In this document: positions 1-14,771 of the stretch, piece after piece
Layout of the letters: each line of letters opens with the position of its first letter
How positions within the stretch are numbered: position 1 is the stretch's first letter
NCBI GenBank assembly: GCA_039802265.1
Contig: JBDRWI010000057.1
Coordinates: 1-14,771 of the forward strand
Source: a candidate division WOR-3 bacterium
GTDB taxonomy: Bacteria; Hydrothermota; Tepidihabitantia; SM23-42; JAOAFX01
Direction: 5' to 3'
DNA length: 14,771 nt
The notes under the pieces: generated by a model
Told to the model about the DNA's origin: nothing
The model's input: only the letters and a program-made list of their open reading frames with translations
The model's database searches: none
Translations under genes and position numbers: made by a program

Positions 1-312
1 AATCCGCAATCCGAAATCCGAAATTAGAGGTCTATCCCAATCCATTCAAAAATCACTGCCTAATTAAATTTCCAAATCCCAAACAATTCCGAATTCCGCA
101 ATCCGAAATCCGAAATTTCTTTAAAGATCTACGATGTTGCCGGTCGGGTTGTTAAATCTTTTAATCCTGAATCCTGTATCCTGAATCATGCATCAGGTAT
201 CACCTGGTCTGGTGATGATGATAATGGTCGCAAATTGCCTTCGGGTATCTATTTTATTGAACTCAAAACCCAAAATTACAATGCGATTCAAAAAGTAATT
301 TTATTAGAATGA
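1..312 (+). pseudogene. 3' end of an upstream secreted-protein gene (T9SS/FlgD-like CTD), frameshifted at 69-71
   Basis: Frame 3 reads SAIRNPKLEVYPNPFKNHCLIK and stops at TAA 153-155. The rest of the CTD (FQIPNNSEFRNPKSEISLKIYDVAGRVVKSF...LPSGIYFIELKTQNYNAIQKVILLE*, TGA 310-312) is in frame 1, which is closed upstream (TAG 25-27, TAA 61-63). The sequence has AAATTTCC where the paralogs at 1422 and 4638 have AAATTCC. Could be a sequencing error. Confidence 0.75.
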
Positions 313-371
313 GAATGTTTATTTTAGCGTCCAGTTTTAACTGTACAAAAATACAAACGAAAGGAGAGCCT

Positions 372-1721
372 ATGAAAATTAAATATATGGCGTTGTTTCT
401 TATTCTTTGCAATGTACTGTTCGCCTATCAAAATTTTCATGGGTGTTGTTTAGCACCCGACAATCAGACTGGCTGGGTTGTCACACTTGATTCCATTATT
501 GTACTAAAAACAACCGACGGCGGTGCACACTGGTTTGAACAGTCAAATAATGCGGCAGCAAGGAAATTCTTTGATATCACATGCCGTGATAATCTCAAAG
601 CCTGGACCTGTGGTATTCTTGGAGAAATTACACACACAAATAATGGCGGGCAGACTTGGACCCATCAGGTTCAGGGGCTGGCAAAATATGCTACAAGAAT
701 TGAATTTATTGATGATACATTGGGATGGGTAGTATGTGGAGACGGTGTTGTAGGCAGAACAACCGATGGTGGCGCATACTGGGAACAGATATTCACACCC
801 TGGGCACAGGCAGAATTTTATGGTGTTTCATTTGCTAATGCCTATGAGGGATGGGTAGTTTCAGGATGGCCCGACAGTCTTGACACAGGGCAAGGTTTAA
901 TCATTCACACAACGGATGGTGGGTTTAATTGGAATTTACAATATTTCAGTTCTGTCTATGAAGATTTTTTTGATGTCCATTTTTTTAATGTTAACATAGG
1001 CATAGTGGTCGGTGGTAATGAACAAAATTATTCACCAATAATCTGGAAAACCATTGATGGAGGATATATCTGGACCCCAATTACTGCACCAGCAAATGCA
1101 TATTATCTCCGTGCCCTTGATTTTGTGGATACCCTAAATGGCTGGGCAGTCGGGAGATTTGGTACAATAATCAATACAACTGATGGTGGAAATACCTGGA
1201 ATTTTCAGACAAATCCTGCCACCACAACCTTGTTTGATGTGGATTTCTCTGATACACAACATGGAATTGCCTGCGGTCAGGGGATAATTTTGTACACAAC
1301 GAATGGTGGAAATACCTGGAATACTGGTACAGGAATAGAAGAATCTACAAATTCGCAATCTACAATCCGAAATCCGAAATTATCGGTCTATCCCAATCCA
1401 TTCAAAAATCACTGCCTAATTAAATTCCAAATCCCAAGCACCAAATCCCAAATTCTAAATAACTCCGAACTCCGCAATCCGAAATCCGAAATTTCATCAA
1501 AGATACTAAATGTAGGGCAAGGCTTCAGCCTTGCGATATATGATGTTTCAGGTCGGGCTGTTAAATCTTTTAATCCTGAATCCTGTATCCTGAATCATGC
1601 ATCAGGTATCATCTGGTCTGGTGATGATGACCTTGGTCGCAAACTGCCCGCAGGGGTTTATTTGATAAGATTAGAAACAGACGACTACACCAAAGTAGAG
1701 AAAACAATTCTTTTGAGATAG
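372..1721 (+). CDS. Secreted YCF48-like/BNR (Asp-box) beta-propeller protein with C-terminal T9SS/FlgD-like sorting domain
   Basis: Seven T-[TNI]-[DN]-GG-x-x-W Asp-box repeats. Signal peptide MKIKYMALFLILCNVLFA. RBS AAGGAG at 361-366 favours ATG 372 over ATG 309. CTD motifs YPNPF, IYDVSGR and LPAGVYLI. Confidence 0.88.
   Translation: MKIKYMALFLILCNVLFAYQNFHGCCLAPDNQTGWVVTLDSIIVLKTTDGGAHWFEQSNNAAARKFFDITCRDNLKAWTCGILGEITHTNNGGQTWTHQVQGLAKYATRIEFIDDTLGWVVCGDGVVGRTTDGGAYWEQIFTPWAQAEFYGVSFANAYEGWVVSGWPDSLDTGQGLIIHTTDGGFNWNLQYFSSVYEDFFDVHFFNVNIGIVVGGNEQNYSPIIWKTIDGGYIWTPITAPANAYYLRALDFVDTLNGWAVGRFGTIINTTDGGNTWNFQTNPATTTLFDVDFSDTQHGIACGQGIILYTTNGGNTWNTGTGIEESTNSQSTIRNPKLSVYPNPFKNHCLIKFQIPSTKSQILNNSELRNPKSEISSKILNVGQGFSLAIYDVSGRAVKSFNPESCILNHASGIIWSGDDDLGRKLPAGVYLIRLETDDYTKVEKTILLR
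1342..1613 (+). repeat. Intragenic heptamer tandem arrays in the CTD (AATCCGA, AAATCCC and AATCCTG families)
   Basis: AATTCGC-AATCTAC-AATCCGA-AATCCGA (1350-1377); AAATTCC-AAATCCC-AAGCACC-AAATCCC-AAATTCT (1422-1456); AACTCCG-AACTCCG-CAATCCG-AAATCCG (1461-1488); AATCCTG-AATCCTG-TATCCTG-AATCATG-CATCAGG (1572-1606). Confidence 0.9.
1512..1534 (+). repeat. GTAG-type REP-like palindrome inside the coding sequence
   Basis: GTAG-G-GCAAGGCT-TC-AGCCTTGC, translated as VGQGFSLA. It is absent from the other five CTDs. Confidence 0.75.
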
Positions 1722-1753
1722 GATTGACTCATTAATTTCAGAAAAACCCACTC

Positions 1754-1781
1754 TTGACTTAAGGCTAATAGTGAATAAAAT
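1754..1781 (+). promoter_or_regulatory. Sigma70-like promoter of the first C25 gene
   Basis: TTGACT (1754-1759), 16-bp spacer, TAAAAT (1776-1781). RBS AAAGGAG at 1792-1798. Nearly identical to the promoter at 4949-4976. Confidence 0.65.
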
Positions 1782-1802
1782 TTTCTAATAGAAAGGAGCT
1801 CT

Positions 1803-4800
1803 ATGAAAAAGTTTTTATTATTCTTTGTATTTCTGATTTCTGCAGGTTTTTCCCAGGAAATCGGGGCAAGATATCTGATAATCACGAATGATGCCTTTTA
1901 TGAGGCAATCTTACCCTTTGCCCAATGGAAGCATAAAATGGGATATAAAACAAAGATTGTCCGGGTACCTTCAGAACTTGCCCAGAATGCCACTGCAATC
2001 AGAAACTATATTGTGAATGCCTACAATACCTGGCAGATAAGACCCGAGTTTATCTTATTTGCTGGCGCGCCAAATTATATACCATGGTCTATCAGTACTT
2101 CACCTTACGGCGATAATAATTATACAAATATGGATGGAGATATCTATAACGAAATCCTTTCAGGAAGATTAAATGTCCACAGTGTTTCTGAAGCCCAGAC
2201 TGTTGTTGCCAAGATGTTGAGATATGAACGTTATCCTGATATTTCAGACCCCTTATGGTTTAAAAAAGGTTGTTTAATTGTCAGGGATATTCAGGATGAT
2301 GATTCAATTACCTATCGGCTTGATGCTGAGTATGTGGCGAGTCATATGGTAAATAATGGTTATGTCAAGGTTGATACATTCTTTGCGAGTCGTGGTGCGA
2401 ATGCAACATCAGTGGTAAATGCGACTAATGAAGGAAGGGGTTTTGTTGTCTATCGCGGTAGTGCGACGAATAACTGGTACAATCCTTTTGCCGTCAATCC
2501 TGATGGGCTTACCAATGGGAATAAACTACCGATAGTTATCTCGGCAACCTGCGGTACACTCGCCACTGGGGCAACTCCCACTGTTGCTGAGCGCTGGTTC
2601 TTAACCGGTTCACCCACTAATTTACGGGGTGCGTCAGGTTATTTTGCGACCACAACAAGCATTGTAAACGGCGCCCATTTAAGGAGTGCGGTTACCCGTG
2701 GATTTTTTGATGGTGTATTTTTATATAAAAGACGCACCTTTGCTGAAGCCTGTGAGGATGGCAGGATAAGAGTCTATAATACATATGGCTCAACGACTGA
2801 ATATCAGGGTTTTACTACTATTGGCGATCCAGCAATGACGTTATGGACTACAACACCAAAGTCGATCACTGTTACATATGATTCAATTCTATATGCAGGA
2901 GTTGAAGAAACCCTTCAGGTAAATGTTCAATATCAGGGTAGTCCGGTTGAATCTGCATATGTTTGTATAATGTTTGATACATTAATATATAAAACTGGTT
3001 GGACGAATAGTTCGGGACATGTGTTTTTTGTCTTTACTGCTTCAAATCCAGGGATACTGGATATCACCGTTACCGGAAGAAATCTTTATCCATTTGAAGG
3101 AACTGCATCAATAATTACCGGCAATGTTTTTATCAGTTACCAAGGATGCACAATCAATGATTCATTAGGTAATAATAATGGTAATATTGATCCTGGAGAA
3201 ACAATCTTACTTTACACATTGCTAAAAAATTTAGGGGTAATTCCTGCACAGGCGGTAACTGCGATATTGAGAACGAATGATACATTGGTAGTAATCAGTG
3301 ACAGCATATCCTATTTCGGTAGTATTAACCCAAATGCTTTAAAGGTCGGTATCAATCCTTTCGTTTTTAGCGTTTCGCCGCGTACATATGGGCATCTCAT
3401 TCCCTTTGATTTGATCGTCCACGATGCAAACGACAGTACGTGGACTTTTAATTTTTCTTTGATGACTACCGGTGCGAGTAGCGGTGGCAATGGGACCGGA
3501 CCTGACCCTTATGGATACTACATTTATGACAATACCGATACCGCAACCGGTAACGCCCCAGTATATTCCTGGTTTGAGATTGCAACACCCGCGGGCGGAC
3601 CCGGACAGATAATCCCTGAAATCACAAACGATGATGCAGATACCGTTACGTTACCTTTGCCATTTACATTTAAATTTTATGGCATAAACTACAACACGAT
3701 AGGGGTCTGCTCAAATGGTTTTGTGGAGATTGGCGGAGCAACCTACCCTTATAGTTACAATGACCCGATTCCAACCGTGGGCAGGGCAAAAAGATATGCA
3801 TCCCCATTCTGGGATGACTTAAATCCAAGCCAGCAGCAGATGGGACACGGTGATATCTACCAATATTATAATCCTACCACCCATCTCTGGTATGTTGAAT
3901 TTTACCAAGTTGCTCTCGGTTATGGTGGCGGTGGCCAATGGGAAACATTTCAGATTATTCTACGCGACCCGGCATATTATCCAACGCCAACAGGTGATGG
4001 TGAAATCCTTTTTATGTATCAAACTGTAATAAATCCAAATAGTTGCACGGTTGGTATTGAAGATGAAACCGAAACCCGTGGTTTGCAGTATCTATTTAAT
4101 GGAAGTTACCACCCTAATGCTGCGGCTATCCAAAATGGCAGGGCACTCTTAATCACAACAAAACCACCGATAAGCCAACATTCACCATGGATAGTAATGA
4201 CCGGCTATGTCGTAAACGACTCTGCTGGTGGTAATAACAATGGTATCCCTGAACCGAATGAAACAATAGAGTTGACGGTCTATATTCAGAATGATGGTGA
4301 TACAATCGTGGCAAATTTAAGCGGCATTTTGAGAGCATATTCAACGAGCGTCTCGCTCATTGACTCAGTGGCAAACTTTGGCGATATTGATATTGGACAG
4401 GTTTCGGACAACAGTTCCAATCCTTATATCATCCAGATATCAGACAATCCCGTCGATACCCTGGTTGGCCTGGCAATCTATTTTTCAGGCAATGGTGGAG
4501 ATTACCATACATATGCCTATTTAACTTTAAGGATTCATTCCGAGGTCAAGATTGAAGAAGGTTCAAATTCGCAATCCGCAATCCGAAATCCGAAATTAGA
4601 AATCTATCCCAATCCATTCAAAAATCACTGCGTGATCAAATTCCAAAGTCCAAACAATTCCGCAATCCGCAATCCGAAATCTGAAATTTCATTAAGTATT
4701 TATGATGTTACTGGTCGTCTGGTCAAATCATTTAACCATTTAACCAATTACCAATCTTCAATCATTTGGTCTGCTGATGATAATTCGGGCCTCAGGCTTC

Positions 4801-4874
4801 CTGCGGGTATTTATTTCTTGAAATTTGAGACAGGTGACTACAGGAAAATAGAGAAGATAGTCCTTCTAAAATAA
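1803..4874 (+). CDS. Peptidase C25 (gingipain-fold) family protein with Ig-like domains and a C-terminal T9SS/FlgD-like domain
   Basis: Signal peptide. C25 motifs: YLIIT..F...I.PFAQWKHKMGY, IRNYIVNAY..W...PEFILFAG, SGRL, ISATC, IGDPAM. Ig-like C25_C region (LDITVTGRNLYPF), two D-x-x-GNNNG-x-x-[DE]P-[GN]-ET domains, a GPDPYGY...PFWDDL domain and a CTD. Confidence 0.88.
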   Translation: MKKFLLFFVFLISAGFSQEIGARYLIITNDAFYEAILPFAQWKHKMGYKTKIVRVPSELAQNATAIRNYIVNAYNTWQIRPEFILFAGAPNYIPWSISTSPYGDNNYTNMDGDIYNEILSGRLNVHSVSEAQTVVAKMLRYERYPDISDPLWFKKGCLIVRDIQDDDSITYRLDAEYVASHMVNNGYVKVDTFFASRGANATSVVNATNEGRGFVVYRGSATNNWYNPFAVNPDGLTNGNKLPIVISATCGTLATGATPTVAERWFLTGSPTNLRGASGYFATTTSIVNGAHLRSAVTRGFFDGVFLYKRRTFAEACEDGRIRVYNTYGSTTEYQGFTTIGDPAMTLWTTTPKSITVTYDSILYAGVEETLQVNVQYQGSPVESAYVCIMFDTLIYKTGWTNSSGHVFFVFTASNPGILDITVTGRNLYPFEGTASIITGNVFISYQGCTINDSLGNNNGNIDPGETILLYTLLKNLGVIPAQAVTAILRTNDTLVVISDSISYFGSINPNALKVGINPFVFSVSPRTYGHLIPFDLIVHDANDSTWTFNFSLMTTGASSGGNGTGPDPYGYYIYDNTDTATGNAPVYSWFEIATPAGGPGQIIPEITNDDADTVTLPLPFTFKFYGINYNTIGVCSNGFVEIGGATYPYSYNDPIPTVGRAKRYASPFWDDLNPSQQQMGHGDIYQYYNPTTHLWYVEFYQVALGYGGGGQWETFQIILRDPAYYPTPTGDGEILFMYQTVINPNSCTVGIEDETETRGLQYLFNGSYHPNAAAIQNGRALLITTKPPISQHSPWIVMTGYVVNDSAGGNNNGIPEPNETIELTVYIQNDGDTIVANLSGILRAYSTSVSLIDSVANFGDIDIGQVSDNSSNPYIIQISDNPVDTLVGLAIYFSGNGGDYHTYAYLTLRIHSEVKIEEGSNSQSAIRNPKLEIYPNPFKNHCVIKFQSPNNSAIRNPKSEISLSIYDVTGRLVKSFNHLTNYQSSIIWSADDNSGLRLPAGIYFLKFETGDYRKIEKIVLLK
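2199..2695 (+). repeat. Near-identical block shared with 5392-5888
   Basis: By eye, ~497 bp with a single mismatch (2285 G vs 5478 A); offset 3193. Confidence 0.88.
4566..4755 (+). repeat. Intragenic heptamer and octamer arrays in the CTD
   Basis: AATTCGC-AATCCGC-AATCCGA-AATCCGA (4566-4593); AATTCCG-CAATCCG-CAATCCG-AAATCTG (4656-4683); CATTTAAC-CATTTAAC-CAATTAC-CAAT (4729-4755). Confidence 0.88.
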
Positions 4875-4948
4875 AAGAATAGCACAAGCAAAGACTCACG
4901 GATTTTGAAATCTCATAGCAATACTGTCGTAAGAGAAGAACTGACCTC

Positions 4949-4976
4949 TTGACTTAAGTCTAATTGTGATTATAAT
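4949..4976 (+). promoter_or_regulatory. Sigma70-like promoter of the second C25 gene, overlapped by palindrome GACTTAAGTC
   Basis: TTGACT (4949-4954), 16-bp spacer, TATAAT (4971-4976). RBS AAGAGG at 4981-4986. Confidence 0.75.
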
Positions 4977-4992
4977 TAATAAGAGGAAATAA

Positions 4993-7900
4993 ATGCGGAA
5001 GTTGGCTCTACTTTTAATTTTTTTGACTTCTTTTGCTATCTCTTCCCCGGGAATTGGGGCGCGTTATTTAATAATAACCCATGACCTTTTTTATGATGCA
5101 ATCTTACCCTTTGCCCAATGGAAACACAAAATGGGCTATAAAACAAAAATTGCCCGGGTTCCATCCGAAATTCCTCAGAATGCAACTTCAATAAGAGATT
5201 ATATTGTAAATGCCTACAATAACTGGCAGATAAGACCAGAGTTTATTCTATTTGTTGGCGCGCCAAATTATATACCATGGTCTATCAGTACTTCACCTTA
5301 CGGCGATAATAATTATACGAATATGGATGGGGATATCTATAACGAAATTCTTTCGGGAAGATTAAATGTTCACAGTTTATCTGAAGCTCAAACTGTTGTT
5401 GCCAAGATGTTGAGATATGAACGTTATCCTGATATTTCAGACCCCTTATGGTTTAAAAAAGGTTGTTTAATTGTCAGAGATATTCAGGATGATGATTCAA
5501 TTACCTATCGGCTTGATGCTGAGTATGTGGCGAGTCATATGGTAAATAATGGTTATGTCAAGGTTGATACATTCTTTGCGAGTCGTGGTGCGAATGCAAC
5601 ATCAGTGGTAAATGCGACTAATGAAGGAAGGGGTTTTGTTGTCTATCGCGGTAGTGCGACGAATAACTGGTACAATCCTTTTGCCGTCAATCCTGATGGG
5701 CTTACCAATGGGAATAAACTACCGATAGTTATCTCGGCAACCTGCGGTACACTCGCCACTGGGGCAACTCCCACTGTTGCTGAGCGCTGGTTCTTAACCG
5801 GTTCACCCACTAATTTACGGGGTGCGTCAGGTTATTTTGCGACCACAACAAGCATTGTAAACGGCGCCCATTTAAGGAGTGCGGTTACTCGTGGTTTTTT
5901 TGATGGCGTATTTTTATATAAAAGACGCACCTTTGGTGAAGCCTGTGAGGATGGCAGGTTAAGGGTCTATAATACTTATGGTGCAACAAATGAATATCGT
6001 GGTTTCACTACAATAGGTGACCCGGCAATGACAATATGGACAGATACTCCCAAACTACTTTCTGTAACCTACGATTCCATCCTACATGTAAGTGCCGAAG
6101 AAACCCTTTGCGTAAATGTCCAGCATCAAGGCTCACCTGTTGAGTCTGCTTACATCTGTATTGTGTTTGACACCTTGATTTACCAGACCGGATGGACAGA
6201 CCTTTCAGGTAATATAACCTTCGTGTTTCCGGTTCAAGATACCGGAATAATGAACCTCACAGTTACTGGCAGAAACTTCTATCCATTTGAAGGTGTGATC
6301 TCAATAATTCATAGCAACGTCTATCTCACTCACACAGGAAATATATTGACGGATTCACTGGGAAATAATAATGGCAATTTAGACCCAGGAGAAACAATCT
6401 TATTATGGGCAAAGATAAAAAATATAGGGGCAATGACCGCACAAAATGTAAGAGCAGTGTTAAGAACAACTGATACAATGGTAGTAATAGCAGAAAGTAC
6501 TTCCTTTTATGGTAATATTGAATCACATCAGATATTTCAGGGTTTAAATCCATTTGTATTCACGATTTCTCCCAAGAATTATCAACATTCCGTACCTTTT
6601 GAATTAACAATATATGATTCCAACAATAACACCTGGAATTCAAACTTTTCTCTTATGACCACTGGAACAACCCCTGGCGGCAATGGCACGGGACCGGACC
6701 TGTATGGATACTATATCTATGATGATACAGATACTTTAACAGGAAATGCTCCAGTCTATTCATGGTTTGAAATTGCGCCTTCCGCGGGTGGGCCAGGGTT
6801 GATAATTCCTGAAATTACTGATAGCGACGATGATACAGTCACTTATCCCCTGCCGTTCAATTTTAAGTTTTACGGTATAGATTATAACTCAATCGGAATT
6901 TGTTCAAATGGATTTTTAGAGTTATCAACATCTACCTATCCTTTTGGGGATAACTCTCCAATACCATCAGCATCAGGTCCTAAAAGGCTTGTCGCTCCTT
7001 TCTGGGATGATTTTGACCTGAGTCCTCCACCCGCTGGAAATGGCGATGTCTACTATTATAATGATACAATTAACCATCGTATGATCATTGAATACAAAGA
7101 CTGTAAGCACTATGGTATTATGCCTCTGAATGCAACCTTTCAAGTAATCTTGCTCGATCCTCTTTATTATCCAACGCCAACTGAAGATGGTGAAATTTTA
7201 ATTATGTTTAATACAGTAGACAACCCATATAGTTGTACTATAGGTATTGAAGACGAAACAGAAACCCGAGGGTTACAATATGTTTATAATAACAACTATG
7301 GTCCGGATGCAATGCAGATCATTAATGGTAGGGCTCTATTGATTACCACGAAACCACCCGCTTATCAGCATTCACCCTGGCTTAATCTTATCAGTCATAT
7401 CATTGACGATTCTGCAGGGGGAAATAATAACGGAATTCCTGAACCAAATGAAATCATTGAATTAACAACCTACATACAAAATTCAGGTGACACACTCGTA
7501 TCAAATGTCATAGGAATTTTAAATACAAACTCAACAAGTGTCTCCTTAATTGATACCATTGCGGATTTTGGAAATATTGATATAGGACAGGTCGCTAACA
7601 ATAGTTCACATCCTTATGTTTTACAGATTACTGAAAATCCAATTGATACCCTTGTCGGACTGGTCATCCATTTCTCGGGCAATGATGGAAATTACAGCAC
7701 CAGTGCCTATTTAACTTTAAGGATTCATTCTGAAGTCAAGATTGAAGAAGGTTCAAATTCGCAATCCGCAATCCGAAATCCGAAATTAGAAGTTTATCCC
7801 AATCCATTCAAGAATTACTGCGTGATCAGATTCCAAAGTCCAAACAATTCCGCAATCCGCAATCCGAAATCCGAAATTTCTTTAAAGATCTATGATGTTT

Positions 7901-8073
7901 CCGGTCGTTTGGTCAAATCCTTTAATCCTGAATCCTGTATCCTGAATCATGCATCAGATATCATCTGGTCTAGCGATGATAATCTGGGTCGCAAACTTCC
8001 TTCAGGCGTATATTTTATTGATTTTAAATCCGACGAAATAAAAGAAATGGAAAAAGTTATTATGTTGAGATAA
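4993..8073 (+). CDS. Peptidase C25 family protein, tandem paralog of 1803..4874
   Basis: Colinear with the previous CDS over its full length, with the same motifs, a signal peptide and a CTD. Confidence 0.88.
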   Translation: MRKLALLLIFLTSFAISSPGIGARYLIITHDLFYDAILPFAQWKHKMGYKTKIARVPSEIPQNATSIRDYIVNAYNNWQIRPEFILFVGAPNYIPWSISTSPYGDNNYTNMDGDIYNEILSGRLNVHSLSEAQTVVAKMLRYERYPDISDPLWFKKGCLIVRDIQDDDSITYRLDAEYVASHMVNNGYVKVDTFFASRGANATSVVNATNEGRGFVVYRGSATNNWYNPFAVNPDGLTNGNKLPIVISATCGTLATGATPTVAERWFLTGSPTNLRGASGYFATTTSIVNGAHLRSAVTRGFFDGVFLYKRRTFGEACEDGRLRVYNTYGATNEYRGFTTIGDPAMTIWTDTPKLLSVTYDSILHVSAEETLCVNVQHQGSPVESAYICIVFDTLIYQTGWTDLSGNITFVFPVQDTGIMNLTVTGRNFYPFEGVISIIHSNVYLTHTGNILTDSLGNNNGNLDPGETILLWAKIKNIGAMTAQNVRAVLRTTDTMVVIAESTSFYGNIESHQIFQGLNPFVFTISPKNYQHSVPFELTIYDSNNNTWNSNFSLMTTGTTPGGNGTGPDLYGYYIYDDTDTLTGNAPVYSWFEIAPSAGGPGLIIPEITDSDDDTVTYPLPFNFKFYGIDYNSIGICSNGFLELSTSTYPFGDNSPIPSASGPKRLVAPFWDDFDLSPPPAGNGDVYYYNDTINHRMIIEYKDCKHYGIMPLNATFQVILLDPLYYPTPTEDGEILIMFNTVDNPYSCTIGIEDETETRGLQYVYNNNYGPDAMQIINGRALLITTKPPAYQHSPWLNLISHIIDDSAGGNNNGIPEPNEIIELTTYIQNSGDTLVSNVIGILNTNSTSVSLIDTIADFGNIDIGQVANNSSHPYVLQITENPIDTLVGLVIHFSGNDGNYSTSAYLTLRIHSEVKIEEGSNSQSAIRNPKLEVYPNPFKNYCVIRFQSPNNSAIRNPKSEISLKIYDVSGRLVKSFNPESCILNHASDIIWSSDDNLGRKLPSGVYFIDFKSDEIKEMEKVIMLR
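7756..7964 (+). repeat. Intragenic heptamer arrays in the CTD
   Basis: AATCCG(A/C) arrays at 7756-7783 and 7846-7873. AATCCTG-family array from ~7923. Confidence 0.88.
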
Positions 8074-8093
8074 TTTCGGGGAAAGGGGGAATC

Positions 8094-11000
8094 ATGAAAA
8101 AGTTTTTAGAATTATCATTAATTTTTGCAATCCCTTTTTTCATATCGGGTGAGGGGATTACTGGTATAAAAAGATTAAGATATGTTGACCCATATGATGT
8201 CCAGATGACATCGTATCAGGAATGGTCCGCAAAAACGAGGATAACAGAGGGGCAATTCAAAATTGGGGAGGCGTACCGAACAAAATTCAGAGCTTCACGC
8301 CTTCCCATGGTTGATATTGTAGTCTATGCCCCACTTTACACCAATATTCTTGATTCTTTAAACCTCTACATTACCGACCTTGAAGCAGAAAATTATAATG
8401 TTCGTGTTGATACAATCCGTGGCTGGCAGGCATCGCAATTGAGGAATCATCTCGCATCACTAATAGATAGCCAGCTCGTTGGTGCGGTATTCATTGGGAA
8501 TGTTCCTGTCGCCTGGTATGAATATGAATCGACCGAAGGACGCGAGGAGTTTCCAATTGAATTGTATTTTATGGATTTAAACGGGACCTGGGTTGATTCG
8601 GATAATGATGGTCTTTATGACGACCATACCGGCAATAAAGCCCCTGAAATATATGTTGGAAGAATTTACGCCGACCCAGTAACCTGGGGAAATGAAATAT
8701 GGCTTGTTAATAATTATCTATCCAAAATTCATAAATACCGCACCAGTGGTTTTGGCATTCCGCAAAAGGCACTTGCCTATGTAGATGATGATTGGTATAG
8801 TTTTAATAATTGTAATCTGAATTTACTCTATGACACTGTCGTCGTAGTTCGGCAATACAATACCACTACCGCAGCAGATTTTCGCCAGCGTCTTGATGAC
8901 CCCTATGAATGGGTTCAAATCTGCAGCCATTCATCACCCTGGGGAAATACATTTAAAAATACATCCGGATATGCAGGCACAGTATTTAATTTTGAACTCT
9001 GGTTTGCTGACCCACCATTCCTTTTCTTAAATCTTTTCCAATGCGCAGGAACAAGATTTATTGAAGAAAATTCTGAAGGGAGTTGTTACATATTCAATAC
9101 CACAAATGGCCTTCTTGCTATCGGCTCTACCAAGGTTGGAAGTATGCTAAATTTCAGCGGTTTTTACGGTCCTTTAAACACGGGCATAACTGTAGGTCAG
9201 GCATTCAAACAATGGTTCACTCAGTACGGAATCAACGATGTTGATTGGTTCTATGGGATGTGTATCATTGGCGACCCAACCCTGAAGCCAAAAAGAACCG
9301 GGATGAAGGTTATAAGTCAACATCGCAATTTTAATCCAATATTACCTTCCTCTAACTGGTCAAATCCGGCACCGGTTGATACCCATCCGGAAACTGATGC
9401 CTTTGTAACTGTGGCAATTGATGGCTCAAGGAGATTGTGGTGTGCCTGGGCAACCGGACGTTCAGTAACAAATGGCAGAACAGAAATCATTGCATCATAT
9501 TATATGAATGGTAACTGGGCACCAGCACAGATTGTGCGACCATATCTTTACTGGGATTTTTTCCCTTCAATGTCCACAGATTTACAGGGCAATCCTTATC
9601 TCACCTGGCAACGGGCTTATGGAAGGAATTATGATATTTTCGGAAGTGTATATGTCAACAATCAATGGGGAACTGAAGAACAGTTAAGCTCTAAGGCATC
9701 AAATGATATGTATCCAGCAATGACCAGGGATGGCGATGGAAGAATGTGGGTCTGTCTTGAACGATGGACACATTTAAATGGTGATATTTATTGCCGTTAT
9801 TTTGATGGAACCACCTGGCAGCCAATGTTTGCGGTAACAACAGACTCAGCCAATGATTATCGTCCCGCAATGGCTACTGATAGCAATGGAATCGCTTGGG
9901 TAACATGGTGTAGTGAGCGTTATCAGTATAATCGAAATATCTATGTGAAAAGATATAATCCAAATACTGGTCATTGGGAAGGGTTATATCGCATCACGAG
10001 CAATCCTGCCCAAGACCAAGATCCTAAGATTGCTGTGTCTGGAGATGGTATGATATGGGTTGTTTGGACCTCCTGGCGCAACGGGAATACAGATATTTAC
10101 GAAAGCCACTACAATGGTTCAACCTGGTCCAATGCCCGCGCAGTTGTTGCTGACCCAAACCGTGATGAACATCCGGTGCTTGTTGTAGATCGAGATGGTT
10201 ATCTATGGTGTATCTGGCAATCCGATAGAACCGGTGATTGGGAAATATGGGCAAAATACTATAAAAATGGTGCATGGGGAGATTCAATGGTAATAAGTAA
10301 TAATTTAGCCCGGGATATATTCCCCAGTGCAGTAGTAGATGATTCTGGCTATATCTGGGTCTTCTGGCAATCAAATCGAAGAGGAAACTGGGATATTTAT
10401 TATAGCAAACTCCATTCTGACCTTGTTGAGCCTCAGGTCACTGTGATTACTCCCAATGGGGGAGAAATCTGGAACATAGGACAAACTTATACGATTCGAT
10501 GGATTGCCCAGGATAATGTAGCAATTGATTCCGCAGTCATTGAATATTCGACTGATAACGGTAATAATTGGAGTTATATAACTACATCATTCGGTAATGA
10601 CTCAACCTATCTCTGGACTATACCACCTACTCCGTCAACGCGATGCCTTGTTCGTATCAGCGCGTTTGATAGAAATGCCAACATTGGGAGAGATTTATCT
10701 AATGCAACCTTCACAATCTATGACCCGATAGCACCTGAAGTCAGTGTGCTCATTCCTAATGGTGGTGAAATATGGTACTGGAATGAATTACATCAAATTC
10801 GCTGGAATTCAAGCGATAATATTGGTATAGACAGTCTAAACATCTATCTTTCCATTGATAGTGGTCTCACCTATCCATACCGGATTTCTCATTTCAATAC
10901 AAATGATTCTATTTATAATTGGATAATACCCCAGGTGAATTCTAATAAGTGTCTGATTAAGGTGCTTGCCTATGACCATTCTGCAAATACGGGTTGTGAT

Positions 11001-11324
11001 GCGAGTGATAATTGTTTTACCATTGGTGCAGTCGGTGCCGAAGAATATACCAATTTGCCCACACAATTCTTCTTAAACTTCCTCTCTCCCAACCCTTCCA
11101 GTGTTGGTCCGTTGCTCCAGTTAGCAATTCCCCACCCAACATTGGTAACAATGAAACTCTACGATATAATGGGGAAATGTGTTTATTCTATAGCAAATGA
11201 AATCCTTTCCCCCGGGTATCACTGCTACGACCTTGGAAAACAAAAATTATCTGCCGGTATTTACTTCATCTCGGTCCAAACAAATGAATTTTCAACCATA
11301 AGGAAAATTGTAATTATGAAATGA
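8094..11324 (+). CDS. C25-like cysteine peptidase domain + beta-propeller-like repeats + two Ig-like domains + T9SS-like CTD
   Basis: Motifs VFIGNVP, PEIYVGRI, putative catalytic His in ICSHS (8928-8930), Cys in NLFQC (9042-9044) and IIGDPTL. About seven repeats of P-x-[MI]-x-x-D-x-x-G-x-x-WVxW...[GN]-x-DIY. Two PxVxVxxPNGGEIW...DNxxIDS domains. CTD motifs PNP, LYDIMGK and LSAGIYFI. RBS AAGGGGG upstream. Confidence 0.8.
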   Translation: MKKFLELSLIFAIPFFISGEGITGIKRLRYVDPYDVQMTSYQEWSAKTRITEGQFKIGEAYRTKFRASRLPMVDIVVYAPLYTNILDSLNLYITDLEAENYNVRVDTIRGWQASQLRNHLASLIDSQLVGAVFIGNVPVAWYEYESTEGREEFPIELYFMDLNGTWVDSDNDGLYDDHTGNKAPEIYVGRIYADPVTWGNEIWLVNNYLSKIHKYRTSGFGIPQKALAYVDDDWYSFNNCNLNLLYDTVVVVRQYNTTTAADFRQRLDDPYEWVQICSHSSPWGNTFKNTSGYAGTVFNFELWFADPPFLFLNLFQCAGTRFIEENSEGSCYIFNTTNGLLAIGSTKVGSMLNFSGFYGPLNTGITVGQAFKQWFTQYGINDVDWFYGMCIIGDPTLKPKRTGMKVISQHRNFNPILPSSNWSNPAPVDTHPETDAFVTVAIDGSRRLWCAWATGRSVTNGRTEIIASYYMNGNWAPAQIVRPYLYWDFFPSMSTDLQGNPYLTWQRAYGRNYDIFGSVYVNNQWGTEEQLSSKASNDMYPAMTRDGDGRMWVCLERWTHLNGDIYCRYFDGTTWQPMFAVTTDSANDYRPAMATDSNGIAWVTWCSERYQYNRNIYVKRYNPNTGHWEGLYRITSNPAQDQDPKIAVSGDGMIWVVWTSWRNGNTDIYESHYNGSTWSNARAVVADPNRDEHPVLVVDRDGYLWCIWQSDRTGDWEIWAKYYKNGAWGDSMVISNNLARDIFPSAVVDDSGYIWVFWQSNRRGNWDIYYSKLHSDLVEPQVTVITPNGGEIWNIGQTYTIRWIAQDNVAIDSAVIEYSTDNGNNWSYITTSFGNDSTYLWTIPPTPSTRCLVRISAFDRNANIGRDLSNATFTIYDPIAPEVSVLIPNGGEIWYWNELHQIRWNSSDNIGIDSLNIYLSIDSGLTYPYRISHFNTNDSIYNWIIPQVNSNKCLIKVLAYDHSANTGCDASDNCFTIGAVGAEEYTNLPTQFFLNFLSPNPSSVGPLLQLAIPHPTLVTMKLYDIMGKCVYSIANEILSPGYHCYDLGKQKLSAGIYFISVQTNEFSTIRKIVIMK

Positions 11325-12916
11325 TTAGATTTACCTTTTTGTTATCATTCATCTTGCACCTTGTATCCGGTGTCTTCTTAATTGACCCTCGTTATCACAC
11401 ATACGAAGAAGCAGTTCAAGAACTTGATTCAATTGCAACCCTCTATCCTACCATTACAAAACTTTTTAATCTCGGGCTTTCAACCCGCGATAGTTTACCT
11501 ATTTGGGGTATAAAGATTTCGGACAATCCCGCAATAAAAGAAGATGAACCAACAATTCTATTTAATGGAATCCACCATGCCGAAGAATTACTTGGATGTG
11601 AAGTCTGCTTGTATCTTCTAAATGACCTCGTGAGTAAATATGGTATTGATTCAGCAATCACCTACTGGATAAATAATGCGGAAATCTGGATAATTCCAAT
11701 TTTAAATCCAGAAGGGCATAATGTTGTGATGAATGGAATTGATACAATATGGCGGAAGAATAAAAGGGATAATAACAATAACGGTTTTTTTGACCCTGAT
11801 TCCGACGGTGTTGACTTAAATCGCAACTACGATTTTAACTGGGAACAAGGTGGAAGTTCGAATCCCGGTGACGAATACTATCGCGGTCCATATCCATTTT
11901 CTGAAAATGAAACAAGAATTGTAAGAAACCTGGCATTTCAGAATCACTTTGTCTTTGATATCTGTTACCACTGTGCCCGGACCGGTCAGGGTGAATTGGT
12001 CTATTATCCCTGGCGCTGGGGAAATCAATTTGCAATTGATCACCCATTTATAAAAAGAATTGCTGATACCCTTGCCTCAAAGATAATAAATGATGCTGGA
12101 AACGGAACCTATGTTCCAATTTATGGTTATGCGACAGAAGGAAATGCAAGAAATTATCTCTATGGGGTATGCGGCACATTTGCCTATACAATTGAGGTAA
12201 GCAGAAGTTGTTATCCACCTGGTTATAAGGTTGATAGCATCTGTATGAGAAATCTTCCTGGCGCATATTATTTACTTGAAAGAACGTTCGGTTCAAGTAT
12301 CACCGGCACAATTACTGATTCAATCACAAACGAACCGATTGTAGCAGAAGTAAGAATTATCGGCTATTATGATTCTACACTTGCATCAAGAATGAGCGAT
12401 TCATTATTCGGTAGATACCGAAGAATTTTGAATCCCGGTACATATTCATTACAATTCAGAAAACAGGGATATGACACAATCACAATAAGCAATGTTGTAG
12501 TACTGCCAGGTATCCCTACAATACTTAATGTAAAAATGAGTCCATTAGGAATTGAAGAATCAGCAATTTCGCAATCCGCAATCCGAAATCCGAAATTAGA
12601 AATCTATCCCAATCCATTCAGAAATCACTGCGTAATTAAGTACCAAATCCCCAATCCCAAATCCCAAACAAATTCCAATTCCCAAATTCCAAATAAAAAT
12701 CTTGCTACTTACTACCCTCTACTCTCTACTCTAAAAATCTACGATGCAACAGGCGAGTTGGTTAGACTATGGGACTATCAGACCATCAGACAATCAGACC
12801 ATGTTGTCTGGAGTACTAAAGACAACACCGGTCGCAGACTTTCTGCTGGAGTATATTTCATTCAGTTTGAATGTGAGAATTATAGGAAGGTAGAGAAGGT
12901 GGTCCTTCTGGAGTAA
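11321..12916 (+). CDS. M14 family zinc carboxypeptidase with carboxypeptidase-regulatory-like domain and T9SS/FlgD-like CTD
   Basis: HAEE (HxxE zinc motif), NPEG, WRKN, GVDLNRNY, FSENET, third ligand His in ICYH and catalytic Glu in YTIE. ITGTITDSITNEPI beta-sandwich follows. ATGA overlap with the upstream gene suggests translational coupling. Confidence 0.92.
   Translation: MIRFTFLLSFILHLVSGVFLIDPRYHTYEEAVQELDSIATLYPTITKLFNLGLSTRDSLPIWGIKISDNPAIKEDEPTILFNGIHHAEELLGCEVCLYLLNDLVSKYGIDSAITYWINNAEIWIIPILNPEGHNVVMNGIDTIWRKNKRDNNNNGFFDPDSDGVDLNRNYDFNWEQGGSSNPGDEYYRGPYPFSENETRIVRNLAFQNHFVFDICYHCARTGQGELVYYPWRWGNQFAIDHPFIKRIADTLASKIINDAGNGTYVPIYGYATEGNARNYLYGVCGTFAYTIEVSRSCYPPGYKVDSICMRNLPGAYYLLERTFGSSITGTITDSITNEPIVAEVRIIGYYDSTLASRMSDSLFGRYRRILNPGTYSLQFRKQGYDTITISNVVVLPGIPTILNVKMSPLGIEESAISQSAIRNPKLEIYPNPFRNHCVIKYQIPNPKSQTNSNSQIPNKNLATYYPLLSTLKIYDATGELVRLWDYQTIRQSDHVVWSTKDNTGRRLSAGVYFIQFECENYRKVEKVVLLE
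12566..12803 (+). repeat. Four repeat families inside the M14 CTD
   Basis: AATCCG(C/A) array 12566-12593; AAATCCC/AAATTCC array ~12638-12690; CTACTTA-CTACCCT-CTACTCT-CTACTCT 12705-12732; octamers AGACTATG-GGACTATC-AGACCATC-AGACAATC-AGACCATG 12764-12803. Confidence 0.9.
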
Positions 12917-12944: not shown

Positions 12945-12973
12945 TTGACATTTTAAAAAAAATTGAATATAAT
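12945..12973 (+). promoter_or_regulatory. Consensus sigma70 promoter
   Basis: TTGACA (12945-12950), 17-bp spacer, TATAAT (12968-12973). RBS AAGGAGGT at 12988-12995. Confidence 0.85.
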
Positions 12974-13224: not shown

Positions 13225-13557
13225 TTATCCTCCTGTCTGGGGCGGTTTTAATGCCCTTGTGTTTTCTTCAATAGCAAGTATAACAAGTATCATATCTGCT
13301 GCAGCGAGGAGACTGACAAAAGCAAGGGCACCATAGATTAAAACGAAAAACGCCATACCGATTCCACCGAAGGCACCTAAAGAACCCAACCCTCCATAGC
13401 CGCCATAACCACCATAGCCCCTGCCCATCATACTGCCCATTGCTGCGCCACCGATAAGCATAACAATAAATCCGATAATGGTAAGCACTGCAACAATCCA
13501 GGCAAGGATTTTAAAGATTACTGATATAATCCTCAGCGCTGTAAATTTTTTCTCCAT
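13225..13557 (-). CDS. Hypothetical membrane protein (110 aa), two TM regions with a Gly/Tyr-rich loop
   Basis: Start MEKKFTALR follows RBS AAGGGGGT (complement of 13561-13568). Hydrophobic helices, a GYGGYGGYGG loop and a C-terminal LAIEENTR. Confidence 0.8.
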   Translation of the reverse strand: MEKKFTALRIISVIFKILAWIVAVLTIIGFIVMLIGGAAMGSMMGRGYGGYGGYGGLGSLGAFGGIGMAFFVLIYGALAFVSLLAAADMILVILAIEENTRALKPPQTGG

Positions 13558-13604: not shown

Positions 13605-13618
13605 TAAGCAATTTTATT

Positions 13619-13648
13619 TTCCTTTAGAAAAGTGGATTAAGGGGATCT
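13619..13648 (+). repeat. Degenerate copy of a CCCCTTT..AAAGGGGG..AGGGGGAT-type interspersed repeat
   Basis: TTCCTTTAGAAAAGTGGATTAAGGGGATCT resembles 13967-13999. Confidence 0.55.
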
Positions 13649-13659
13649 GCTTACACAAC

Positions 13660-13805: not shown

Positions 13806-13866
13806 TCTAAACTACAAACTAATTACCATACCAGCATCCCAACCCATAAACCAATAACCATTTTTT

Positions 13867-13951
13867 GTAGTGGTCAAGCCTGGTTGAGTTCTCTGTAGTG
13901 GTCAAGCTTGCTTGACATTTGACTCTTTTGCAGAGTAAACTCTGCCACTAC
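13867..13951. repeat. Cluster of three GTAG-type REP-like elements including an inverted doublet (REPIN/BIME-like)
   Basis: GTAGTGGTCAAGCCTGGTTGAG (13867-13888, imperfect); GTAGTG-GTCAAGC-TT-GCTTGAC (13895-13916); minus strand GTAGTG-GCAGAGT-TT-ACTCTGC (13951-13930). Confidence 0.8.
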
Positions 13952-13962
13952 AAAAGATTTTA

Positions 13963-13999
13963 ATCTCCCCTTTAGTAAAAGGGGGATTAAGGGGGATTT
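13963..13999 (+). repeat. CCCCTTT-N-AAAGGGGG-N-AGGGGGAT hairpin repeat
   Basis: ATCTCCCCTTTAGTAAAAGGGGGATTAAGGGGGATTT: the C-tract can pair with either of two G-tracts. Confidence 0.7.
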
Positions 14000-14188
14000 G
14001 ATCAAACACTGTCGTGGTTATTGGGTTAAGGGCATGTCAGCCTGTAATAATAAAAATTTATTTCCATCCCGCAGCGAGAAGGGTCCTGGAAAAAGTCGTG
14101 CTATTCGGACACTTTTTAACATTCTGACACAGGAAGTATAAGTTGAAAAAGGTTAATTTACATTCAACTCGATTAGATAAAAAAATCA

Positions 14189-14216
14189 TTGACACAAAAA
14201 AATATTTATATATAAT
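14189..14216 (+). promoter_or_regulatory. Sigma70 promoter of the secretin gene
   Basis: TTGACA (14189-14194), 16-bp spacer, TATAAT (14211-14216). RBS AAGGGGG at 14224-14230. Confidence 0.8.
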
Positions 14217-14234: not shown

Positions 14235-14771
14235 ATGAAATCAAACAATCTTAAATCCGTCATTCTTCTATTCGTCATAATTTCTTTTATACCTGCCCAA
14301 ATGCAAACTGTTAAGCAGGATTTACATACTGCTGTTTTATCGTTAAAATTTATTTCACCGGCTGAACTTGTTGATAATCTTCTAAAACAAAGACAATTGG
14401 ATGATAATTATATTCTTAAAACAAAACAGGGTGATGTCAAACTTCTTGTCAATAACTCAACAAATCAATTATTGCTCACCGGAGACTCAATTTCGATTTC
14501 TGAAGCAAAAAATATGATTGAATTTTTAGATGTGGCACCAAGGCAGATTGTGGTCGAAGCCAAAATAGTAGAACTCAATAATTCAAGAATGAAGGAATTG
14601 GGTTTTGATTGGCAGAAATTTTTGGATAACACAAGAATCGGCGAGCAACTATCGGTTGATGCATATCAAGTGAAAAGGCAATATCAGGGTAACGAAGCCG
14701 AAGAAAAAAGCATTCATACTGCGTTAAACGGCTTTATCCAGCATACCATATCTATTGGTGACCTATTAAAA
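14235..14771 (+). CDS. Secretin (GspD/PilQ family outer-membrane channel), 5' part; runs off the window
   Basis: Manual translation is open for 179 codons: signal-like MKSNNLKSVILLFVIISFIPA, an N-domain (LSLKFISPAEL...NNSTNQLLLTGD...AKNMIEFLD) and the secretin signature LDVAPRQIVVEAKIVE...MKELGFDW. Confidence 0.88.
   Translation, partial: MKSNNLKSVILLFVIISFIPAQMQTVKQDLHTAVLSLKFISPAELVDNLLKQRQLDDNYILKTKQGDVKLLVNNSTNQLLLTGDSISISEAKNMIEFLDVAPRQIVVEAKIVELNNSRMKELGFDWQKFLDNTRIGEQLSVDAYQVKRQYQGNEAEEKSIHTALNGFIQHTISIGDLLK

Follow-up and report, generated by a model that had tools for sequence, protein, structure and literature searches.

Introduction

Short tandemly repeated repetitive (STRR) sequences of cyanobacteria are dispersed heptamer arrays, and a single tolerant site, the P6b loop of the tRNA-Leu intron of Nostoc, is occupied by one or another of a set of unrelated heptamer classes. 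According to the portions of the following papers drawn on here, heptamer arrays among the direct repeats of Beggiatoaceae are tolerated at the ends of proteins, with their orientation set by coding potential (PMC4679880, which also summarises earlier work on the excess of heptamers), and heptamer arrays are mostly intergenic in Xanthomonas (89-93%) and Nostoc (68%) (PMC4692102). Heptamer repeats of variable number precede the S23p four-helix-bundle open reading frame (ORF) in intervening sequences (IVS) of 23S rRNA (PMC4990558), GTAG-tagged repetitive extragenic palindromes (REPs) and Rickettsia palindromic elements are inserted in frame (PMC3733652), and surface-protein genes of Porphyromonas gingivalis undergo domain rearrangement and allelic exchange (PMC5266723). 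Here, we describe a 14,771-nucleotide stretch of DNA from a candidate division WOR-3 bacterium (GenBank assembly GCA_039802265.1, contig JBDRWI010000057.1), referred to below as the window. Its cargo genes end in the type A sorting domain of the type IX secretion system (T9SS), a C-terminal domain (CTD) or tag whose coding sequence, in five of six cases, contains tandem arrays of 7- or 8-base units at three positions, the slots, and whose slot contents move between paralogues. A literature search, which took in few subscription journals and no supplements, found no paper on arrays inside T9SS CTDs.

Results

Arrays occupy three slots of the sorting domain

The window is the entire contig C57 of a 2.3 Mb genome that is 89% complete, and gene calls are our own ORF calls. 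It contains one gene end and five whole genes (a propeller, two C25 peptidases, a 1076-residue protein and an M14 peptidase), all of them cargo genes terminated by a type A sorting domain in profile searches. PF18962/TIGR04183 was matched by the five intact proteins and the CTD fragment, with all six CTDs above the TIGR04183 cut-off (24.4-39.5 bits; cut-off 23) and four of the six above that of PF18962. With 36% identity, a record of Candidatus Stahlbacteria is the closest named match to a CTD of the window. Our own CTD profile has 197 matches in the genome, 196 of them C-terminal, and profile searches also identified SprA (SprA_N) and two PorV-like genes.

A preliminary description, made from the sequence, had placed 7/8-base arrays in five of the six CTDs at three fixed slots: slot 1 between IEE and LE[IV]YPNPF, slot 2 between CxI[KR] and IYD and slot 3 between GRxV and the W of WSxxD. 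Tandem Repeats Finder and our own scan agree on this, and the arrays lie where they had been placed. Tandem Repeats Finder reported period-7/8 arrays at 1-24, 88-116 and 163-187 (CTD 1), at 1364-1380, 1422-1453, 1464-1492 and 1572-1596 (CTD 2), at 4565-4604, 4659-4687 and 4729-4750 (CTD 3), at 7755-7786, 7849-7877 and 7924-7948 (CTD 4) and at 12558-12596, 12643-12694, 12712-12732 and 12773-12802 (CTD 6). It found no period-7/8 array in the cargo DNA of the window, and CTD regions hold 16 of the 16 window arrays in our own scan, bearing out the earlier remark that the cargo domains are free of them; the array at 1-28 was labelled intergenic only through a break in the frame of CTD 1, which has one extra base in a T run (69-71) between slots 1 and 2, a feature that the preliminary description had overlooked. 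The window arrays consist of 2-8 imperfect units. The features of the window genes are as follows.

1-312, + strand: CTD 1, in a gene cut by the contig start; slot-1 array 1-28, slot-2 array 85-118, slot-3 heptamer array 160-195
372-1721, + strand: BNR/YCF48-like beta-propeller cargo gene with repeat-type CTD 2 (profile matches)
1356-1380, + strand: CTD 2 slot 1, heptamer array, peptide QSTIRNPK (repeat scans)
1422-1494, + strand: CTD 2 slot 2, two stacked heptamer arrays, predicted disordered (repeat scans, structure model)
1512-1534, + strand: REP-like hairpin in CTD 2 slot 2, in-frame peptide VGQGFSLA (folding z = -3.5)
1569-1604, + strand: CTD 2 slot 3, heptamer array, peptide FNPESCILNH, predicted short helix (repeat scans, model)
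1803-4874, + strand: peptidase C25 (gingipain-like) gene 1 with repeat-type CTD 3 (profile match)
2286-2695, + strand: 410-base tract identical in C25 genes 1 and 2 (sequence comparison)
4565-4604, + strand: CTD 3 slot 1, heptamer array, peptide QSAIRNPK (repeat scans)
4656-4689, + strand: CTD 3 slot 2, heptamer array, peptide SAIRNPKSEI (repeat scans)
4723-4754, + strand: CTD 3 slot 3, octamer array, peptide FNHLTNYQ (repeat scans)
4993-8073, + strand: peptidase C25 gene 2 with repeat-type CTD 4; slots 1 and 2 like CTD 3, slot 3 like CTD 2
7755-7794, + strand: CTD 4 slot 1, heptamer array (repeat scans)
7846-7879, + strand: CTD 4 slot 2, heptamer array (repeat scans)
7920-7956, + strand: CTD 4 slot 3, heptamer array, peptide FNPESCILNH (repeat scans)
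8094-11324, + strand: 1076-aa cargo gene with a plain, repeat-free CTD (about 11031-11324), an internal control; its orthologue has the same plain tag type
11321-12916, + strand: peptidase M14 carboxypeptidase gene with repeat-type CTD 6 (profile match)
12566-12604, + strand: CTD 6 slot 1, heptamer array, low-confidence linker in the model (repeat scans, model)
12641-12735, + strand: CTD 6 slot 2, stacked heptamer arrays (QIPNPKSQ ... YYPLLST), predicted disordered (repeat scans, model)
12765-12803, + strand: CTD 6 slot 3, octamer array, WDYQTIRQSDH, predicted ordered short helix (repeat scans, model)

The placement of arrays in CTDs is real and strongly non-random. Across the genome, CTDs make up 61 kb and contain 72 period-7 arrays (117 per 100 kb), whereas the remaining 2,004 kb of coding DNA contain 33 (1.6 per 100 kb) and the 231 kb between genes 15 (6.5 per 100 kb); the density is thus far from similar in all coding DNA. 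Period-8 arrays number 14 in CTDs (23 per 100 kb), 16 in other coding DNA (0.8) and 11 in intergenic DNA (4.8), and CTDs contain no array of the control periods 5, 10 and 11 in the genome-wide scan. Period-7 rows number 209 in the genome and 47 in a shuffled genome. Slot statistics were compiled from the 87 of 196 C-terminal hidden Markov model matches that have all anchors; the other 109, mostly short plain types but including the frameshifted CTD 1, were left out. A periodic stretch occurs in 41 of the 87 (15 in slot 1, 33 in slot 2 and 30 in slot 3), and the three conserved frame segments of the same CTDs have 0, 0 and 1. CTDs with arrays or shared slot clusters are termed repeat-type (46), and the remaining 41 anchored CTDs plain. 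Slot families were labelled by unsupervised clustering, which lumped most slot-2 types in one cluster, and slot-2 alleles were therefore kept off the tree test below. Four CTDs on other contigs have an inverted pair of arms without an ORF in slot 2, and no TIGR02436 ORF was found between arms in the window or inside any slot. In loci L019, L020, L035 and L118 of relatives, other small palindromes lie in frame within slot 2 or the slot-3 octamer, so that the slots accommodate elements of several types.

CTDs were present in 40 of 40 relatives searched. The same slot peptides occur in the best loci of three families of the order, although these loci were chosen by likeness to the query and are biased accordingly, and arrays and shared slot peptides are also found in single-contig genomes of the order (G034, L028). 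Among 10 regions from other families of the phylum, four have arrays in CTD slots, one of them in all three slots; two loci of distant families (L156 and L160) have other arrays in the same slots, and slot contents are not invariant across distant relatives. A DNA search of the phylum gave at least 22 of 151 (at most 5 candidates scored per genome), and in other lineages the same test found an array in 1 of 32 CTD loci. A protein-pattern search of genome contigs gave no CTDs but distant ones.

Slot contents are exchanged between paralogous tags

The preliminary description had also proposed that repeats at a slot are exchanged, and exchange of slot contents among paralogues is real. CTDs 3 and 4 are alike in slots 1 and 2 (1.00 and 0.92) and unlike in slot 3 (0.44), and slot 3 of CTD 4 is instead alike that of CTD 2 (0.96). 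Slot 2 differs in 20 of the 26 pairs of CTDs that have a near-identical slot 3. On a tree of the frame segments, slot-3 labels require 12 changes (minimum 5, shuffled mean 18.3), and a single clade is rejected for the two largest slot-3 alleles (approximately unbiased test, p-AU of 0.004 and 0.011). Of the 46 repeat-type CTDs, 28 have an exact tract of at least 30 bases in common with a paralogue, as do 3 of the 41 plain ones; the cargo is unrelated in 27 of the 35 tract-sharing pairs, and 44 cargos make up 15 families. At four-fold sites of the repeat-free frame segments, repeat-type identity is 0.47, 0.32 and 0.45 versus 0.30, 0.25 and 0.29, the extreme end excepted. This patchwork identity among paralogues, incongruent with flanks and cargo, is a hallmark of gene conversion. 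Copies of one slot allele keep identical imperfect units and flanks, suggesting that a few old captures were copied.

Orthologues with 85-98% identical cargo differ in slot content. The syntenic propeller orthologue in the related genome G007 has cargo 98.5% identical over 328 residues, but its slot 2 lacks the REP and its slot 3 is the octamer allele. The last residues of the propeller gene are shared by G007 and G013, yet none of the three slots is the same. The M14 orthologues, 91% and 85% identical to that of the window, carry two further slot-3 alleles, three in total, and in the G007 cluster the orthologue of the plain-tag gene has retained a plain tag. Pieces of the tag are thus copied quickly from gene to gene, and near-identical proteins in related genomes carry different repeat-built tags. 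The G007 cluster has a single C25 gene, about 61% identical to either C25 gene of the window.

Exchange also extends into the cargo. The other cargo parts of C25 genes 1 and 2 are mostly 57-73% alike outside their identical 410-base tract, which on sequence comparison we read as conversion without repeats, in repeat-free cargo. The region 2063-2695 is covered by one contig at about double depth in sequencing run X3. The runs listed for this genome are hot-spring metagenomes, four DNA runs of one study and no RNA run, and the comparison used their assembled contigs (Logan). These contigs have breaks at the CTDs, and the window as a whole is covered by none of them; several runs do have single contigs that continue from cargo into slot 1. 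The CTD 1 locus exists in two versions, with window positions 1-580 and the end of contig C103 alike at 443 of 455 bases. Slot 2 is short and out of frame in the C57 version and long and in frame in the C103 version, where it holds a REP with a nested 36-base insert. The two are either strain alleles or a chimera.

Fold, constraint and reading frame of the slots

Two AlphaFold models were built on a 68-sequence alignment. The modelled CTD is an Ig-like beta-sandwich with a predicted local distance difference test (pLDDT) score of 83, and Foldseek returned five matches with E < 0.001 (PorZ, two chains of PorU, a T9SS-bound substrate chain and the mirolase CTD); a sequence search of solved structures gave weak matches only, the best with E of 0.23. 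The models show slot 1 as a linker of low confidence, slot 2 as a loop predicted to be disordered (pLDDT 45-57) and slot 3 as a short helix between two strands (pLDDT 93-94 in one model and about 70 in the other). Of the 46 repeat-type CTDs, 43 have a slot 3 spanning 23-26 residues, and in 25 of the 41 plain ones it spans 25 residues, whereas the slot-2 span varies from 22 to 66 residues in repeat-type CTDs. Because the slot-3 span is conserved in both types and that of slot 2 is variable, slot 3 is a same-length replacement of ancestral sequence. In three slot-3 alleles, a rough count against the majority sequence gave 27 synonymous and 25 non-synonymous changes, a ratio of non-synonymous to synonymous polymorphism (pN/pS) of 0.27; frame segments have pN/pS of 0.15 and 0.19. 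Slot 3 is thus length-conserved, predicted to be ordered and apparently under purifying selection, not a loose loop. The earlier picture of tolerant loops holds for slots 1 and 2 and fails for slot 3.

Every array of the window had been described as having its C-rich strand on the coding strand. This is correct for the window but does not extend to the whole genome, where the coding strand is C-rich in 79 of 94 CTD arrays and G-rich in 15. Mean hydropathy is -0.79 for the peptides that CTD arrays encode and +0.41 for those of the opposite strand; in 65 of 84 arrays the encoded peptide is the less hydrophobic of the two, and in 61 of 84 at least one frame of the opposite strand contains a stop. 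Since CTD peptides are more polar than the opposite strand would give, and the opposite strand has stops, the strand bias is best explained largely by selection on the protein. The frame is intact in 47 of 48 repeat-type CTD places, the broken one being CTD 1.

The same repeats occur outside the tags

The array families of the CTDs are also found in signal peptides, spacers, gene ends, other genes and the arms of four-helix-bundle genes. By position, the 49 coding arrays outside CTDs fall into 26 within the first 45 codons, which account for 12% of coding DNA, 19 in mid-gene and 4 within the last 30 codons. Many of the 26 early-codon arrays, with starts from our own ORF calls, lie in apparent signal peptides. 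The RNPKSEI family of the CTDs reads FGFRISDFGF from the other strand in signal-peptide-like leaders, and in several such leaders (G000 contigs C79, C84, C4, C46, C65 and C11) the charged front is read from one strand and the hydrophobic core from the other strand or frame.

Four-helix-bundle (TIGR02436) genes are present in 48 of 48 genomes of the order, and the six in this genome have repeat-like flanks by eye. An arm of period 7/8 accompanies 22 of 38 examined four-helix-bundle genes versus 28 of 705 control short genes, several of the 38 being orthologous. Identity to such arms, without mismatch, extends over 20 bases in one slot-3 allele and 18 in another; the 20 bases of CTD 6 slot 3 are found in the downstream arm of a four-helix-bundle gene in the relative L062. 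On sequence likeness, CTD arrays and four-helix-bundle arms appear to be of the same class, with a common source as a candidate. At G000 C14:1442-3693, three four-helix-bundle genes are interleaved in one membrane-protein operon with differing repeat arms, one of them translating its own arm as VNGKRSTV, a peptide also seen in CTD slot 3. In L047 (G011:C4), a four-helix-bundle gene with its arms occurs twice, identically, between direct repeats that by eye resemble CRISPR repeats.

The REP-like hairpin of slot 2 has 30 copies, of which 21 are intergenic, 8 lie in CTDs and 1 elsewhere. Its 3' end encodes the start of the strand before IYD, where it occurs in two registers, and it is missing in two orthologues. 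As the preliminary description had supposed, the slot repeats are therefore dispersed micro-repeat elements: the same families occur outside CTDs, and the REP is mostly intergenic. The best two Y1 transposases score 42 and 48 against a cut-off of 80 for the REP-associated tyrosine transposase (RAYT) model NF047646, a third Y1 match being unscored, and one REP copy lies about 200 bases after one of these sub-cut-off genes. A broken reverse-transcriptase piece was found at G000 C83:8564-8869, beside a transposase-like ORF at the contig end that, from its motif, we take to be ISL3-like. A diversity-generating retroelement was considered and rejected, as the broken piece is the only reverse-transcriptase sequence and lies on another contig, and the variation consists of whole-segment replacement.

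Other features of the window

Downstream of the cargo genes, a strong intergenic hairpin at 13861-13955 (z = -4.9) has the appearance of a REP-like doublet and recurs in a few copies on two further contigs. A short palindromic element of C and G runs occurs twice in the window, at 13615-13650 and 13963-14005, and again on C70 and C88. A small glycine-rich membrane-protein ORF (13225-13554, minus strand) has no NCBIfam match, and the start of a secretin-like gene (14235-14771) scores below the cut-offs of the PilQ/GspD models. Perfect sigma-70-like promoters precede the secretin-like gene (14189-14216) and a 59-codon ORF (12945-12973). Promoter and terminator scans were at shuffle level (58 vs 49 shuffled and 15 vs 11 shuffled).

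Discussion

Origin of the slot contents

The most probable explanation, in our view, is that dispersed repeats and REP hairpins were rarely captured in tolerant segments of the CTD, filtered at the protein level and reshuffled by patchwork gene conversion among about 46 paralogues. The supply would come from a lineage that keeps producing and spreading short imperfect 7/8-base arrays and REP-like hairpins throughout its genome, the four-helix-bundle cassette being the leading candidate for the source. Arrays within genes would survive at loosely constrained sites, mostly the export signals (signal peptides and CTD), and only in the strand and frame that give a fitting peptide, which is polar in CTDs and, in signal peptides, either charged or hydrophobic. 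In Bacteroidota the CTD is known to be removed after export, and arrays may survive in export signals because these are later removed. The arrays taken up by one CTD subfamily would have been a limited set: some entered the linker that precedes the domain (slot 1), some a surface loop (slot 2), and others replaced a short ordered segment at equal length (slot 3). Homologous recombination, perhaps RecA-type conversion, would then copy patches of tens of bases among the roughly 46 tags and across unrelated cargo. The outcome would be a recombining pool of tag alleles with fast slot turnover and the frame kept, in which alleles are probably near neutral in slots 1 and 2 and constrained in slot 3.

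Several observations weigh against this explanation. Passive filtering accounts poorly for the 41 anchored CTDs that stay repeat-free. Among the 12 pairs with a near-identical slot 2, slot 3 differs in just 1. Slot-3 alleles are still clustered on the frame tree, which has 180 columns (12 changes compared with 18.3 when shuffled), and a single clade survives the test for a slot-3 allele with two members (p = 0.30) and for the main slot-1 allele (p = 0.083). The 46-member group was chosen by arrays or slot clusters, so that part of its excess similarity is built in, and short-read assembly may form chimeras at such repeats. Overall, CTD arrays also share families with four-helix-bundle arms no more than expected by chance: of the units, 14 of 35 lie within one mismatch versus 18 shuffled, exact units number 3 versus 1.2 shuffled (p = 0.12), 13-mers are shared with CTD arrays by 5 of 38 arms versus 4.7 in controls, and RNPKSEI, the commonest CTD family, has no exact unit in the 38 arms examined, orthologous loci included.

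The preliminary description had favoured a mechanism that deposits repeats into loops of the CTD. In its active form, a four-helix-bundle element, a REP tyrosine transposase or a reverse transcriptase would write arrays at CTD slots, and arrays would attract further inserts. This would suit the presence of ten or more unrelated families at three shared places, the nested inserts (36 bases in the REP loop, palindromes in the slot-3 octamer of L019 and L020 and a different palindrome in slot 2 of L118), the two registers of the REP before IYD, the presence of TIGR02436 genes in every genome of the order and the other arrays in the same slots of L156 and L160. We nevertheless consider it fairly unlikely. 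Imperfect units and flanks are constant among copies of one allele, as copying predicts; profile searches found no dedicated depositing enzyme at the window locus; the two best Y1 transposases fall short of the RAYT cut-off; the sole reverse-transcriptase match is a broken piece of 110 residues; and no GxxExxY gene was found in a search of this genome at its 89% completeness. It is likewise unlikely that the four-helix-bundle cassette, or a partner, writes the repeats, that arrays seed inserts and recombination hot spots, and that the system has been domesticated so that slot 3 sets cargo route or anchoring, in effect a combinatorial, repeat-built T9SS address system. Selected diversification, in which slot alleles, above all those of slot 3, are functional variants of the sorting signal (PorV partner, cleavage or anchoring) and conversion reroutes cargo, seems more doubtful still. 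Slot 3 is helical in both models and well ordered in one, its length is conserved and it is under purifying selection, SprA and two PorV-like genes are present, and three families of the order have slot-3 peptides in common; however, near-identical cargo with different slot-3 alleles across genomes argues that cargo needs no given allele, and purifying selection may merely keep the fold.

Two further possibilities are phase variation and assembly artefact. Gain or loss of one 7- or 8-base unit could toggle the frame of the tag, given that the periods are not multiples of three and that one window CTD is out of frame. Such phase variation is very improbable: the break in CTD 1 involves a single base in a T run instead of a repeat unit, the frame is kept at 47 of 48 places, the arrays are short and imperfect, and the contigs of the four runs, which drop rare variants, show no 7- or 8-base indel. 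We give equally little credence to assembler chimeras at near-identical repeats as the source of the mosaics. The breaking of Logan contigs at CTDs, with none across the window, and the two versions of one locus in C57 and C103 would fit this, but chimeras would not keep all but one place in frame or yield the pN/pS of 0.27, single contigs cross from cargo into slot 1 in several runs, and arrays and shared slot peptides occur in the single-contig genomes G034 and L028.

Significance and comparison with known systems

Under the capture-and-conversion explanation, non-triplet repeats appear here as ordered, selected protein sequence within a domain that looks to be working, and concerted evolution acts on a secretion tag across unrelated cargo. 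The alleles form a natural series for asking which CTD surfaces count in type IX secretion outside Bacteroidota, and the large, dated set of arrays bears on how 7/8-base arrays arise and on whether four-helix-bundle genes make them. In practice, these tags break assemblies and mislead paralogue trees.

The tags resemble the T9SS type A CTD (PF18962, TIGR04183; PorZ 5M11, PorU 6ZA2, mirolase CTD 8QB1) in profile, fold, terminal position and the accompanying SprA/PorV homologues, and differ in being a longer, FlgD-like form with a repeat-encoded linker, loop and helix. In P. gingivalis, too, recombination reshuffles parts of T9SS cargo genes, but in the portions of that paper drawn on here these are catalytic and adhesin parts without short arrays, whereas the patchwork described here lies inside the CTD (PMC5266723). 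As with in-frame REPs and Rickettsia palindromes, a mostly intergenic short palindrome is read in a protein; here, only one of the slot elements is a REP, at one position in 8 paralogues, and forms part of a conserved strand (PMC3733652, as far as the portions used describe those elements). The S23p IVS involves the same gene family that has heptamer or octamer arms on either side in genomes of this order, but the CTD arrays lie in protein genes, mostly as single arms with no ORF between (PMC4990558, in the portions used). The arrays do not share the mostly intergenic placement of STRR and long simple sequence repeats (LSSR), as 15 of 120 period-7 arrays are intergenic and 72 of 120 lie in CTDs. 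The Nostoc tRNA-Leu intron is a non-coding RNA loop at a single locus, whereas the CTD slots are coding. Scattered 7-base arrays, some of them in frame, are common to this genome and to Beggiatoaceae, Xanthomonas and Nostoc, where, in the parts of those papers drawn on, one family dominates; here, many 7- and 8-base families share three slots and are exchanged among paralogues (PMC4679880, PMC4692102). What sets the present arrays apart from known in-frame 7/8-base arrays is that they are concentrated in one tag, that one slot is ordered and under selection, and that conversion between genes for unrelated cargo is fast.

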